In this document: positions 30,925 to 52,950 of the stretch, in pieces
Layout: every line of letters begins with the position of its first letter
Numbering within the stretch: the first letter of the stretch is position 1
Origin: Escherichia coli
GTDB taxonomy: Bacteria > Pseudomonadota > Gammaproteobacteria > Enterobacterales > Enterobacteriaceae
NCBI RefSeq assembly: GCF_003991155.1
Contig: NZ_CP031293.1
Direction: 5' to 3' (one strand)
Length of the DNA: 64,000 bases
Translations under genes and position numbers: made by a program
Notes under the pieces: model-generated
Database searches by the model: none
What the model saw: the letters and a program-made list of their open reading frames with translations, nothing else
Told to the model about the DNA's origin: nothing

Positions 30925-30938
30925 TGGCGGAGAGAGGG
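30925..30938. repeat. Direct repeat of serU 3' end (island attachment-site scar, att distal)
   Basis: TGGCGGAGAGAGGG is identical to the first 14 nt of the serU gene at 52861-52874 in the same orientation. Confidence 0.7.
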
Positions 30939-31102
30939 TCTAAATTTTTAGTGTTCGACAATGCCCACCTAAGTGCTATTTTTCCTTTAAAAACAAAATA
31001 TTGTCATTATTTTTTTGTTCGGTAGTGTATTGCTACTGTGCAAACAATCAGCTATTTTATGCAGTACCGTATGTATGGCGGGTTGTATGACAGGATTTTG
31101 CT

Positions 31103-32323
31103 ATGCCAAAGAAGGCCAAGGAACTCTCAGGACTCGTCGTATCACGATTAAAATCCGAAGGCATGTATGCCGTTGGTGGTGTGGATGGTTTATACCTTCG
31201 CATCCGAAATCAGTCCCGTGCATGGGTTCTTTGCGTGGCTATGGGAACCCGAATCAACAATCTCGGTAGAACAGTTCCAAGACGTTTGAATATGGGGCTT
31301 GGCCCCTACCCGGAAGTCTCCTTAGCCGAAGCGCGTGACAAAGCGCGTGAGCTACGTAAACAAATCCGTAATGGTATTAATCCCCTTCAGGAAAAACACG
31401 AGCAAAAAGCCCGGCAGGAAATACTGGCCCGGAAGAAAAAGACCTTTGCTGAATGTTGTGAAGAAGTGCTGGAAGTCAAAGACAGTGAGATGAAGAATAA
31501 AAAACATCTTGCTCAATGGCGTTCCACACTGGAAACCTATGCCTACCCTTTCATTGGCAAAAAGGCCGTTAGTGAAATCACCAAAGTAGATCTTCTGGCA
31601 ATACTCGAACCTATCTGGTTAACCAAGAATGAAACCGCCAGCCGTCTACGTGGACGCATTGAAACAGTGATTGATTACGCTAAGGCCAAAGAATACTTTG
31701 AAGGTGATAATCCTGCCGCATGGAAAGGTATGCTGAAACCTCTGTTGCCTCAGCCAAGTAAAGTTCAGATCACCAAACACCATGCCGCTCTTCCCTATAG
31801 CCAGATCGGCTCCTTTATGAAAGAACTGCGTGAACGAAGCGGCGTTTCGCCTCGTGCGCTTGAGTTTGCCATACTGACCGCTGCACGCTCAGGTGAAATT
31901 CGTGGTGCCGAGTGGTCAGAGATCGATCTTGAAGGTAAAACGTGGACCATACCCGCCAGTCGAATGAAAGCAGCAAAGGAGCATCGAGTTCCTCTGTCTG
32001 ATGCTGCTGTTGCCTTGTTAAAAGCTTTACCACGCTTTAAGGGTATAAATTTTGTATTCCCTGCCACCCGAAAGGGACAACTCTCGGATACGGCTTTGCT
32101 GGCAGTCCTAAAGCGAATGGGATACACCGATTTAACACAGCATGGGTTTAGATCGACATTCCGTGATTGGGCTGGTGAAACGACCAACTATCCGCGTGAG
32201 GTAATTGAACATGCGTTAGCTCACCAGTTGGCAGATAAGGCAGAGGCTGCGTATCAACGTGGGACATTATGGCCTAAGCGGGTGGCGTTGATGGATGAAT
32301 GGACGGGGTTTTGTGTTTCTTAG
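31103..32323 (+). CDS. Tyrosine-type site-specific integrase (406 aa)
   Basis: N-terminal arm-binding-like region (GLYLRI...), C-terminal catalytic region with HGFRSTFRDW and terminal Tyr-containing segment; next to the att repeat. Confidence 0.88.
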   Translation: MPKKAKELSGLVVSRLKSEGMYAVGGVDGLYLRIRNQSRAWVLCVAMGTRINNLGRTVPRRLNMGLGPYPEVSLAEARDKARELRKQIRNGINPLQEKHEQKARQEILARKKKTFAECCEEVLEVKDSEMKNKKHLAQWRSTLETYAYPFIGKKAVSEITKVDLLAILEPIWLTKNETASRLRGRIETVIDYAKAKEYFEGDNPAAWKGMLKPLLPQPSKVQITKHHAALPYSQIGSFMKELRERSGVSPRALEFAILTAARSGEIRGAEWSEIDLEGKTWTIPASRMKAAKEHRVPLSDAAVALLKALPRFKGINFVFPATRKGQLSDTALLAVLKRMGYTDLTQHGFRSTFRDWAGETTNYPREVIEHALAHQLADKAEAAYQRGTLWPKRVALMDEWTGFCVS

Positions 32324-32386
32324 AAGTTCTAATTAGCTACAAATAGTCCCCGCCCTTTATGAACTGACACCATAAATTCTTAATGA

Positions 32387-32914
32387 TTGTATAAGATTTA
32401 TCAATTTAGAGTAATATACGACAGAAACGTTTCACATGAATATGCTGTTTTTAAGGAGAAAAATGAAACGAGTAAACTGGACTGGTTCAATAACGTAGAA
32501 AATCGCCCACATCCTTGGGAAGGTATGGGGCTGACATGGTTGACAACAGCACTAAATGTCCCTGATGTAAAAGCAGCTATTAATTTTTACACTGAAGTAA
32601 TGAAGATGGTGGTAATTTCTGAACTTGAGGGTGATGGTGGTGATGTATTATTTGCTCGTATCCGTTACCGTGGCACAAACTTCACCATAAATAAGGAAGG
32701 ATGGGATTCCGACCTGAAAAGCCCAAATACTTCGGGAGCTATGCCTCCCTTTATTTTTTATATGTATGTAGATGATATGATCACTCTGGTAAATGAAATG
32801 GTTGAAGCTGGCTCGACTGTTCTAAATGAACCTGCTGAAATGTTCTGGGGTGATTTAAAAGCCCGTGTGAAAGACCCATTTGGTTTTATCTGGGATATAG
32901 CACAGAAACTGTAA
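32387..32914 (+). CDS. VOC/glyoxalase-bleomycin-resistance-family protein (start uncertain, alternative Met at 32525)
   Basis: Pattern GLTWLTTALNVPDVKAAINFYTEVM resembles VOC-fold first beta-alpha unit; weak RBS at either candidate start. Confidence 0.5.
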   Translation: MYKIYQFRVIYDRNVSHEYAVFKEKNETSKLDWFNNVENRPHPWEGMGLTWLTTALNVPDVKAAINFYTEVMKMVVISELEGDGGDVLFARIRYRGTNFTINKEGWDSDLKSPNTSGAMPPFIFYMYVDDMITLVNEMVEAGSTVLNEPAEMFWGDLKARVKDPFGFIWDIAQKL

Positions 32915-33056
32915 AGAAATCGTCAGATCATCGTTCAACTCCTCTTTTCGGTTAAAGTAGGCTGTTGAAATCAAAATGCACAACACATTTAATTCTTACT
33001 ATGTCGTGCATTTTTGATTCAAATAATTAATACAAAATCAATTCTGTATACTACTT

Positions 33057-51242: not shown

Positions 51243-51311
51243 TATTATTTAGGATAATAAAATGCCCTGTGCGAACAGTTATCTGTTCGACACGAGATCT
51301 TGTTTCTGTTT

Positions 51312-51530
51312 TTATGCAGCGTTCTGGCGTGAGTTTCGAATAGTCGTTTCAATCCATTCATCAATCTCACTTTCAACAAAAGCAACACACCTCGGACCTA
51401 TTTTTACTCTGTCAGGAAAGTTTCCTTCCTTAATACGCTCATATAAAGTCGTGCGACTGAATCCCACTCGATTTAAAACATCAGGAACGCGGATAAATCG
51501 TTTTACGCTGGTTTCAATATTTTCTTTCAT
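51312..51530 (-). CDS. alpA: AlpA-family phage/island transcriptional regulator (excisionase-like HTH), about 72 aa
   Basis: KRFIRVPDVLNRVGFSRTTLYERIKEGNFPDRVKIGPRCVAFVESEIDEWI matches the AlpA/MerR-like HTH pattern; start trimmed to MKENIET. Confidence 0.75.
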   Translation of the reverse strand: MKENIETSVKRFIRVPDVLNRVGFSRTTLYERIKEGNFPDRVKIGPRCVAFVESEIDEWIETTIRNSRQNAA

Positions 51531-51745
51531 TGTCTGTCCTCTATTATTGTAAGTAATCTCTATGAGATTTCGCTTTTCTCTATGTTGTTTCGACGTGAAC
51601 AATGATAGCGATTTTGCTTATGGTAATTTAGGGACGTTCAAAGAAGTTTTTTTTGAAAAATTCGAAGGGGCACGGATGGAAAGATAACGGTTAACACTGG
51701 ATGAGATCACGTTCGCTCGGAGCGAACGTAACCCTTTTACTTGGC

Positions 51746-52639
51746 TTATTTTTTCTTATTCCTGTCGTCTTCTACATGCTTTTCAACAGGGGAGTCTTTC
51801 AAGTGGTTGTTTTCCATCATGTAATCTTCAAGCGATTTCAGATAGCTCGCATCCGTCAGAAAAGCCATTGCTAACGGGTAGTCCGTTGCCTTTAGCATTC
51901 CTTCATCACGATCGTTGTCGCTGTCCTCGTGAAGCAGCGAAGAAATCAGTGAAAGCGGGATTTTAATGCCGTTATCTTCTCCCCAGAAGATCAGGTCCAT
52001 CATCGGGATAAGACGATATTCAATGATTTTTCTGAATGTGCTTTTGCCGAAACGATACTCTCTTGGCGCTGGAGACTTCATCTTAAGCTGTCTCTTCCAT
52101 TGAGGGATCAGCACTTTCAGATGTTCAATGATTTCTTCAGTTGATGCCTCTTCCAGATGAATATCGACAGTAATGCGTGAAAGATTATTAAGGGATGTTT
52201 CTTTTAGATACTCGGACAGAAATTCGGATTCGCTTAACGCGGAAAGCTCAGGCGTGGCTTCGGTTAATGCCAGCGTTTTCGCATAAAATTGCGCGTGGCT
52301 TCGTGTCGTAGGATTTACCGCGTAGGTTCTGGCAAGCTCATGTCCAAGGGTAGCGGTATCACCACTGAAAAAGATTTCACCGCTGAGGATCTTGTTGCGG
52401 TAATCATCCAGCATTAATCGGTTAAAGGTAGGTATGGTGTTCCGGCTCAACAACATTCTGTAAGCCAAGATACGCCGCTCAACCTCAACATAAAACTGCT
52501 GTAAGGTGAGTTTCTCTATCGCCTCATATCGTTCCACATCAAACCATGCTTCCAGTGCTTTCCTGATTTCACTTCTTTTCATCCATCCTCCAACAATCCA
52601 TTTCCTTTGATATATCTTCACAGGATCCGTTTGGAACAA
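51746..52639 (-). CDS. Hypothetical protein (297 aa) adjacent to serU
   Basis: ORF with RBS; no family recognised. Confidence 0.5.
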   Translation of the reverse strand: MFQTDPVKIYQRKWIVGGWMKRSEIRKALEAWFDVERYEAIEKLTLQQFYVEVERRILAYRMLLSRNTIPTFNRLMLDDYRNKILSGEIFFSGDTATLGHELARTYAVNPTTRSHAQFYAKTLALTEATPELSALSESEFLSEYLKETSLNNLSRITVDIHLEEASTEEIIEHLKVLIPQWKRQLKMKSPAPREYRFGKSTFRKIIEYRLIPMMDLIFWGEDNGIKIPLSLISSLLHEDSDNDRDEGMLKATDYPLAMAFLTDASYLKSLEDYMMENNHLKDSPVEKHVEDDRNKKK

Positions 52640-52860
52640 TTGAAGTTCAACTGTTTTGTCATCAGAGACGGGGGAATGGCTAAGTTGTTGTTAAGAGTGT
52701 GAACTCGAGAGCATAAAAGTGGATGCCCGACGCGCGGCAAAATGGTAAAAAACAGCATCAGTAGTAAGAAAAATTGAGCGAGAGAAAGGAATTTTAATGC
52801 AGGGATTTATGCATGACAAAATCAAAAATACTTTGTAAGTGATTGATTTTGTTGAATGAT

Positions 52861-52950
52861 TGGCGGAGAGAGGGGGATTTGAACCCCCGGTAGAGTTGCC
52901 CCTACTCCGGTTTTCGAGACCGGTCCGTTCAGCCGCTCCGGCATCTCTCC
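52861..52950 (-). tRNA. serU: tRNA-Ser (anticodon CGA)
   Basis: Reverse complement GGAGAGATGCCGGAGCGGCTGAACGGACCGGTCTCGAAAACCGG...GGTTCAAATCCCCCTCTCTCCGCCA has long variable arm and CGA anticodon. Confidence 0.92.

Follow-up and report, generated by a model that had tools for sequence, protein, structure and literature searches.

The window analyzed here is a stretch of 64,000 nt of Escherichia coli DNA (assembly GCF_003991155.1, contig NZ_CP031293.1), and it contains a genomic island with a GC content of 37.9% located at the 3′ end of serU, the gene of tRNA-Ser(cga). The tRNA gene was identified by ARAGORN, in agreement with Rfam, and the Rfam scan from 29.5 to 56.5 kb revealed two tRNAs and no other RNA family. 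Genes were named according to the PGAP annotation of an identical RefSeq stretch from E. coli AR Bank #0349, and profile searches were performed with Pfam, NCBIfam, PHROG and PADLOC. Read from the zinT side, the island begins with an integrase gene (int, plus strand), a VOC-family gene, the pilV-like and pilin genes (minus), a traD-like gene (minus), three unknown open reading frames (ORFs), mobQ (plus) and two further unknown ORFs. These are followed by a lipoprotein gene, a DUF4755 gene, a TIR and SIR2 gene pair (minus), a frameshifted ORF, repL (plus), a DUF4756 gene and a full-length H-NS paralogue (plus). The serU side is formed by a DUF6404 gene and an 80-aa H-NS paralogue (both minus), two small ORFs, a gene for an AlpA-type helix-turn-helix protein (alpA, minus), a DUF6387 gene (minus) and a spacer of 278 bp. 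The coordinates are given in Table 1.

Boundaries and gene content of the serU island

The 14-mer TGGCGGAGAGAGGG, which is the reverse complement of the last 14 nt of serU including the CCA, was found exactly twice in the window, once at the zinT-side end of the island and once within serU; by arithmetic, the chance expectation for an exact 14-mer is ∼5e-4. Both copies are in direct, not inverted, orientation, and their spacing is 21,936 bp. The empty site of E. coli K-12 MG1655 shows the order zinT, yodB, serU, mtfA and asnT. When the flanks were compared with this site by BLAST, the left flank (window 30478-30938) aligned with the K-12 spacer through the last 14 nt of serU, where homology ended, and on the right K-12 homology resumed at window 52861. 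Because homology stops and restarts at the repeats, the insert is a precise one of 21,922 bp plus one 14-bp duplication, placed at the serU 3′ end between zinT/yodB and mtfA. The same repeat was seen at both island ends in the probiotic strain M-17 and, in clone D i2, at the one end covered. No copy of the att (attachment site) core was detected inside the island in a search at up to 3 mismatches in 13.

One integrase, one AlpA-type recombination directionality factor (RDF), one relaxase and one pair of repeats are present in the island. The integrase starts 164 bp from the distal repeat and has the arm-binding N-terminal, central SAM-like and catalytic domains of a P4-type tyrosine integrase; the motifs ARSGE, HGFRSTFRDW, LAH and AAYQRG occur in the translation, in which the R..H-x-x-R..H..Y residues were assigned by eye. 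The segment between repeat and integrase contains a GTTC-N6-GCCC motif whose position is kept among relatives, and it may serve as an att arm or as the int promoter. The AlpA-family protein is 69-71% identical to the proteins at the RDF position of islands inserted at tRNA-Asn and at serT. Beyond the pilV-like and pilin genes, the remainder of a pilus operon is missing, and the PilV-like protein shows only ∼26-28% amino acid identity to plasmid PilV homologues, most of which are on conjugative plasmids. The slot-2 proteins and the 190-aa protein of slot 3 gave no significant match in Pfam, NCBIfam, PHROG or PADLOC, and the 160-aa protein of slot 3 gave none in NCBIfam, the one library searched with it.

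By comparison with three other E. coli islands, the region was divided into backbone blocks and variable slots. The first block includes the chromosomal left flank, and GC was measured there on int alone. The GC content of the backbone is 48% in int, 41-43% in the pil-traD, oriT-mobQ and lipoprotein blocks and 36-39% in the repL and hns-side blocks.

Table 1. Features of the serU island and of its junctions in the window
Feature	Position	Strand	Basis or remark
tRNA-distal att junction	30925-30938		exact 14-bp serU 3′-end copy, antisense on + strand; K-12 homology ends at 30938
Putative integrase-side att arm, 164 bp	30939-31102	+	TCTAAAT half-site, GTTC-N6-GCCC motif, promoter-like site 30955-30982
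P4-type tyrosine integrase, 406 aa, apparently intact, tRNA-Ser-targeting family	31103-32323	+	Pfam Arm-DNA-bind_3, Phage_int_M and Phage_integrase
Variable slot 1, VOC-family protein (32387-32914)	32325-33054	+	36.8% GC; no homology to clone D i2 or 05-3629 islands
PilV-like tip adhesin, backbone	33057-34520	-	intact ORF; 93-95% nt identity to other E. coli islands
Type IV major pilin, backbone	34573-35130	-	intact ORF; 93-95% nt identity to other E. coli islands
Small TraD-like relaxosome accessory protein, backbone	35526-35831	-	PGAP name; kept in all four E. coli islands
Variable slot 2, three ORFs	35833-37798		30.5% GC; no significant family match
Candidate origin of transfer (oriT)	38186-38260	+	hairpin CCTATACACTGC-gta-GCAGTGTGTGGG (38197-38223) and following sequence; ∼115 bp upstream of mobQ
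MobQ-family relaxase	38338-39819	+	NCBIfam NF041496, 248 bits (cut-off 200)
Variable slot 3 (tcpC slot in islands of uropathogenic E. coli)	39652-41104	+	divergent relaxase C-terminus and two hypothetical proteins; 34% GC
Lipoprotein, DUF4755 protein, hypothetical protein, backbone	41105-42954		PGAP; homology to other islands
ThsB (TIR), predicted type I Thoeris, in slot 4 (42955-45363, 32% GC)	43002-43613	-	PADLOC PDLC00428, E 2.6e-85, full length
ThsA (SIR2 and SLOG/STALD), predicted type I Thoeris	43630-45066	-	PADLOC PDLC00407, E 8.2e-203, full length
Two 38-nt palindrome repeats and RepL-family gene (48023-48568)	47437-48568	+	PGAP; repeats 47437-47474, 47576-47613
Full-length H-NS paralogue, 134 aa, Hfp/H-NSB position	49360-49764	+	PGAP; in block 95.9% identical to uropathogenic island
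Truncated 80-aa H-NS paralogue, H-NST-like	50283-50525	-	length and position match published H-NST
AlpA-family putative excisionase (RDF)	51312-51530	-	Pfam PF05930, E 1.2e-18; PHROG excisionase families
DUF6387 protein	51746-52582	-	always between RDF and att site in this island group
Putative tRNA-side att arm, 278 bp	52583-52860	-	promoter-like site 52819 to 52791 directed into DUF6387/alpA
serU tRNA-Ser(cga), intact	52861-52950	-	last 14 nt (52861-52874) form the tRNA-proximal att repeat
Backbone blocks	30001-32324, 33055-35832, 37799-39651, 41105-42954, 45364-48585, 48656-51753		GC 36-48%
Variable slots	32325-33054, 35833-37798, 39652-41104, 42955-45363		GC 30-37%

An earlier note on this DNA had described the distal repeat ∼21.9 kb from the intact tRNA, an integrase beside it, an AlpA-like regulator on the tRNA side and an alternation of AT-rich and GC-richer segments. 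All of this was borne out: the repeat is an exact match at which K-12 homology breaks, the GC alternation was measured, and a DUF6387 gene lies between alpA and serU. The K-12 empty site has exactly the boundaries that the note had given, and the repeat is kept at both island ends of M-17 and at the one end covered in clone D i2. From the patchwork of genes that it listed, the pilin genes, the relaxase (MobQ), the defence genes (TIR and SIR2) and two H-NS paralogues are present, but the word "remnants" does not fit, since the pilV-like and pilin ORFs are intact and conserved. The note had also called for a search for internal partial att repeats, and at up to 3 mismatches this yielded none.

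Two features were observed outside the island. On the left, yodB of K-12 is absent, and 222 bp (window 30256-30477), bounded by zinT and by the spacer that precedes the island, stand in place of 995 bp of K-12 sequence. On the right (53942-55446 and beyond), asnT is followed by another P4-type integrase (54184-55446, plus strand), which has 54% protein identity to the integrase of Asn-inserted islands of the EARL/IE3 type and ∼75% DNA identity to that of the high-pathogenicity island (HPI); a RelE fragment and an IS3 element come next, and the whole, at a distance of 1 kb from the serU island, resembles a decayed second island.

Relationship to published serU islands and the number of elements

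The region is very probably one integrative mobilizable element (IME) of the E. coli serU-island family, in which the tRNA-distal integrase is the layout of the family, and not a stack of elements. The published serU island (PAI-CFT073-serU, PAI-536-serU or PAI VII536) is 22-23 kb long, has 38% GC and lies between direct repeats at serU; the proteins TcpC, Hfp/H-NSB and H-NST are encoded in it, and a review relates it to ROD21 while noting its different integrase. The island in the window has the insertion site, the 14-bp repeat and the integrase (96.5% nucleotide identity) of the island of uropathogenic E. coli (UPEC), and its size (21.9 kb) and GC content correspond to the published values. 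The order of the backbone is likewise the same, with 90-96% identity over pilV, pilin, traD-like, mobQ, lipoprotein, DUF4755, repL, DUF4756, hfp, DUF6404, hnsT, alpA and DUF6387; Hfp/H-NSB and H-NST were recognized by gene size and by block identity to the UPEC island.

Differences were found in the slots. In the UPEC-type island of clone D i2, mobQ is followed by tcpC, another TIR gene and a gene with a macro domain, all absent from the window, where slot 3 encodes two unknown proteins without homology to the tcpC slot. Clone D i2 has a ComEA-like gene in place of the Thoeris pair, and the contents of slots 1 and 2 are different as well. The sole TIR protein in the island is the ThsB of the Thoeris pair. 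Every property of the published serU island that was compared, except TcpC, was found. The most fitting classification of the island is within the known E. coli serU-island family, as a member that is tcpC-negative and Thoeris-positive; the earlier note had missed this membership.

tRNA sites can collect tandem arrays, and the earlier note had considered that two or more elements accreted in tandem at serU; integrated one after another, they would have left the present island as their fused remnant. The patchy gene content, the GC swings from ∼30% to 48% and the apparently decayed second island next door at asnT are in keeping with such a history. The single integrase, RDF and relaxase and the lack of an internal att copy at up to 3 mismatches, however, speak against it, as does the recurrence of the complete order from int to DUF6387 in UPEC serU islands and in a serT island that is 72-77% identical; this recurrence indicates that the arrangement is older than these variants. 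In addition, the GC alternation maps onto conserved backbone versus variable slots, and the patchwork therefore represents cargo turnover on one scaffold rather than fused elements. Tandem accretion is accordingly regarded as highly improbable, and a single element is retained as the explanation.

The integrase with its upstream arm was found at an identity of at least 95% in ∼390 of 5,426 complete E. coli genomes, always in the chromosome. The Thoeris module was found in exactly 48 of the same genomes, again in the chromosome throughout. Among the carriers of the Thoeris variant is M-17, in which the island lies beside an intact HPI; in the window, no intact HPI adjoins it. The Thoeris-bearing, tcpC-negative variant occurs in E. 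coli from humans, livestock, pets and wastewater. The islands of the window and of M-17, which have the same Thoeris type, are 96.7% identical overall, with values per 500 bp from 84% to 100% and of 99.4-100% in the Thoeris slot; this range indicates recombination among island variants. The variant of the window is itself essentially clonal, with at least 99% identity in ∼36 genomes.

A plasmid-borne copy of the island was also considered and was rejected, as the close "plasmid" matches are very large records and the one examined (393 kb) has chromosomal flanks. This record (L091, CP088875.1, E. coli F17EC0245) contains the chromosomal genes from yedI to zinT and the int-to-lipoprotein part of a serU-type island, beside a DotA/TraY gene; either a plasmid that captured chromosomal DNA or a misassembly could account for it.

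Position of the integrase in related islands

The ROD21-like (EARL) islands and the island in the window have a conserved gene set in common: genes for type IV pilin and a PilV-like protein, a relaxase of the MobA/MobQ type, a TraD-like protein, H-NS homologues in full-length and truncated form, and an AlpA-type RDF at the end opposite a P4-type integrase. They were defined by a search for a ROD21-like attL and an integrase at the 3′ end of tRNA-Asn. In these islands the integrase adjoins tRNA-Asn and the repeat is 24 bp long, whereas in the window a tRNA-Ser stands at the RDF end and the repeat is 14 bp long. The closest comparison is that with E. coli 05-3629, in which the same backbone (93-96% identical over the blocks) is located at tRNA-Asn as an IE3/ROD21-like island. 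There, an EARL-type integrase, to which that of the window is only 27% identical, adjoins the tRNA, the serU-type int is an internal pseudogene at its usual place upstream of pilV, and the far end contains alpA, DUF6387 and the 24-bp Asn repeat. With its serU target, its distinct integrase and its non-homologous arms, the island in the window does not belong to the EARL islands as defined, and the review also sets the serU island outside them for its different integrase.

Homology between the window and 05-3629 breaks at 51376, inside alpA. Past this point, identity is 69% in AlpA and only 39% in the DUF6387 protein, and the att arms show no relationship. It follows that exchange concerns the unit alpA-DUF6387-att-int, which is contiguous only in the circular form. 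A second relative, in E. coli 0H26, is inserted at serT (backbone 72-77% and integrase 77% identical); its order is tRNA-Ser, DUF6387, alpA, mobQ and int at the far end beside yccA, and its repeat is exactly the last 14 nt of serT, CTGCGCTTCCGCCA. The position and orientation of int, upstream of pilV, are the same in the serU-, serT- and Asn-type islands, and it is the tRNA end that differs.

Homologues of the integrase were then surveyed with one genome per species, which gave 80 homologues (46-99% identity) from Gamma-, Beta- and Alphaproteobacteria, 77 of them with enough upstream sequence. An antisense TGGCGG[AT] was found upstream of int in 59 of these 77 loci at a distance of 141-281 nt (median 173), compared with 7 of 308 control windows. 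A downstream tRNA-Ser on the minus strand lay within the sequence covered at six loci, and five of them showed a repeat of 13-14 nt of the 3′ end of that tRNA. These five small islands (3.7-9.3 kb) have the tRNA at the opposite end and on the opposite strand from int. In an alignment of the junctions, the flank is followed by TGGCGGA, by 7 nt that vary and agree with the Ser isoacceptor of the locus, and by a TCCGCCA-like sequence; this island-side inverted half-site is a perfect TCCGCCA in several relatives and a degenerate TCTAAAT in the window.

The tRNA-distal integrase is thus a trait of the family and not an accident of this strain. The layout, which the earlier note had considered possibly unusual, is unusual relative to the ROD21-like islands and to the common P4-type pattern, but not within the integrase's own family. 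No usable general statement on tRNA-proximal versus tRNA-distal placement of integrases was found in the literature. A precedent exists in the reference genome: in CP4-6 of K-12 (thrW ... intF), the integrase is also tRNA-distal and transcribed back toward the tRNA, although it is only 23% identical (unrelated in practice) and the tRNA, the cargo and the size (34 kb) differ. The main value of the analysis is that a puzzling layout receives an ordinary explanation within the known serU-island family, and its novelty is modest.

A model of integration that would account for the layout can be proposed from these patterns. The P4-type integrase would act on a site of the circular element and recombine it with the final 14 nt of serU. 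The element site would consist of TGGCGGA, a 7-nt overlap and the degenerate inverted half-site, and the 14-bp repeat would represent one 7-bp half-site (TCCGCCA, the tRNA 3′ end) and the 7-bp overlap (CCCTCTC); the crossover positions assigned in this way are predictions. The overlap would set both the target isoacceptor and the orientation, and the integrase family offers a compact natural example of how 7 bp could do so. In the circle, alpA, DUF6387, attP and int would form one contiguous module. In this integrase family, the tRNA sense strand of the core would point away from int, and for this reason int would come to lie at the far end, with DUF6387 and alpA just downstream of the tRNA. 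The serU-type and Asn-type islands agree in the order of the module around attP, and what separates them is the polarity of the core; with the opposite polarity of the ROD21-like relatives, int would abut tRNA-Asn.

Alternatively, a secondary rearrangement in this lineage (an inversion or a swap of the integrase module) could have moved int from a tRNA-proximal to a tRNA-distal position. ROD21-like relatives with the same backbone do have int beside the tRNA, and the alpA-DUF6387-att-int module has been exchanged between island types, with the breakpoint inside alpA. Nevertheless, the repeats are direct and not inverted, the distal layout and its spacing extend over the 59 loci from many proteobacterial orders, and int keeps its backbone place upstream of pilV in all three island types. 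Such a rearrangement therefore appears extremely unlikely, and the family layout is preferred.

At one further locus of the survey (L013, 537-1424, Affinibrenneria salicis), a tRNA-Ser 3′ end (TGGCGGTGAGGGAG) occurs in two antisense copies, 344 and 170 nt upstream of the integrase, with a full tRNA-Ser(gga) on the minus strand further upstream; this may be a tandem or rearranged site.

Predicted mobility and defence cargo

The N-terminal domain of the MobQ relaxase is 55% identical to MobQ of mobilizable enterobacterial plasmids of 3.5-4 kb. The hairpin upstream of mobQ is a candidate oriT: together with the following sequence, it is nearly 100% conserved in the serT island, which is ∼72% identical overall, and only the 3-nt loop differs. 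In the window the loop is GTA; the three E. coli islands compared with it have the reverse complement, TAC, between identical stems. The island annotation contains no genes for a type IV secretion system, a type IV coupling protein or a mating channel. With its own integrase and att sites, the island appears, judging from its genes and the candidate oriT, to have the anatomy of an IME. Excision would be carried out by Int with the AlpA-type RDF; for transfer, the island would supply MobQ, the TraD-like protein and the candidate oriT, and a helper conjugative plasmid would supply the mating channel. The experimental support comes from relatives that have the other integrase: excision was found for ICEKp258.2 and IE3, ROD21 has been reported to excise and to transfer by conjugation, and its AlpA-like protein SEN1998 binds both att regions. 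By analogy with these relatives, the serU island may be mobile.

An exact 15-mer, GACAATGCCCACCTA, was observed both in the integrase-side arm (30957-30971) and at the left edge of the candidate oriT (38186-38200). A role for it as a regulatory link between excision and transfer was considered and not retained, as clone D i2 lacks the arm copy and M-17 has only 12 nt of it.

Several observations weigh against a mobile element with an integrase that is tRNA-distal by family rule. Three homologues (L061, L062 and L066) show the classic layout of tRNA followed by int at similar spacing, without a tail repeat visible within 8 kb, which indicates that the polarity has flipped within the family and is not absolute. 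The proposed core, of the classical tyrosine-recombinase kind with a 7-bp overlap between inverted half-sites, was read from sequence patterns. Matches to the RSF1010/Ti-type nick-site consensus WWGTGCGCCCT were no better than chance, and none was near mobQ. Direct evidence of excision, of a circular form or of transfer is lacking for any serU-type island.

The remaining points of this kind concern a fixed island, in which the integration and mobilization genes would be relics and which would spread only together with the adjoining chromosome, when large chromosomal segments have been transferred by conjugation and recombine homologously. Messerer et al. (2017) reached this conclusion for the serU island, which they described as lacking mobilization genes and spreading with its flanks; the statement on mobilization genes conflicts with the annotated relaxase and TraD-like genes and with the MobQ score. 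The divergence between the window and M-17 is similar in island and flanks, which fits spread by homologous recombination, and the degenerate island half-site TCTAAAT, in place of TCCGCCA, could mean reduced activity. The 393-kb "plasmid", with its zinT-side chromosome and part of such an island, and the near-clonality of the window variant are also in line with a fixed island. On the other side, none of int, alpA, mobQ and the traD-like gene has a broken ORF, the candidate oriT shows strong conservation, and ROD21-like relatives with the same backbone excise experimentally. Related integrases have furthermore been retargeted between serU and serT with the 14-bp rule kept, which implies that members of the family have recently integrated in a site-specific manner. 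A fixed island is on these grounds considered rather unlikely, yet it deserves to be taken seriously beside the IME. As the serU island carries a relaxase, a TraD-like gene and an oriT-like hairpin, its site-specific mobilization is worth testing.

The cargo of slot 4 consists of adjacent, co-oriented genes for ThsB (TIR) and ThsA (SIR2 and SLOG), both full-length PADLOC matches, as in type I Thoeris. No unusual feature of the pair was detected; it is cargo and not mobility machinery, and would, to judge by its genes, act as an anti-phage system through depletion of NAD+. In the UPEC-type island of clone D i2 (L003, 28416-30953), TcpC itself gave a full-length PADLOC match to ThsB (E 2.6e-210); the next gene also matched ThsB (6.8e-91), and the macro-domain gene matched macro-type ThsA (4.2e-128). 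The tcpC locus of clone D i2 thus looks like a type II Thoeris operon, which suggests that TcpC may primarily be a Thoeris component and bears on its interpretation as a "virulence factor". No explicit statement that the tcpC locus is a Thoeris operon was found in the papers searched. In the IE3-like island of 05-3629 (L006, 17919-31677), the slots also gave matches to defence systems (NsnA-like, NsnB-like, LmuA/HamA-like and PDC-S60), and the variable slots of the serU/ROD21-like backbone seem to be hotspots of defence genes.

A broader joint reading is put forward with some reserve. It holds that the integrases form a pan-proteobacterial tRNA-Ser family, in which a change of the overlap retargets the isoacceptor and its inversion flips the end at which int lies, and that the chief role of the serU/ROD21-like backbone is to carry TIR-based immune modules. 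Such a reading is possible but somewhat doubtful. If it is true, serU versus serT would be a retargeting by the overlap only, with TCCGCCA fixed, and the three tRNA-proximal homologues would have an inverted overlap. On tRNA-Ser integrases and the carriage of TIR modules, this reading goes beyond the descriptions found in the literature.

Upstream of repL, the two 38-nt repeats each contain the palindrome GTGATTGT..ACAATCAC and lie 139 bp apart, in a region that is 82% conserved in the serT island. The repeats may be an operator or an origin, and together with repL they possibly constitute a replication or maintenance module of the excised circle.

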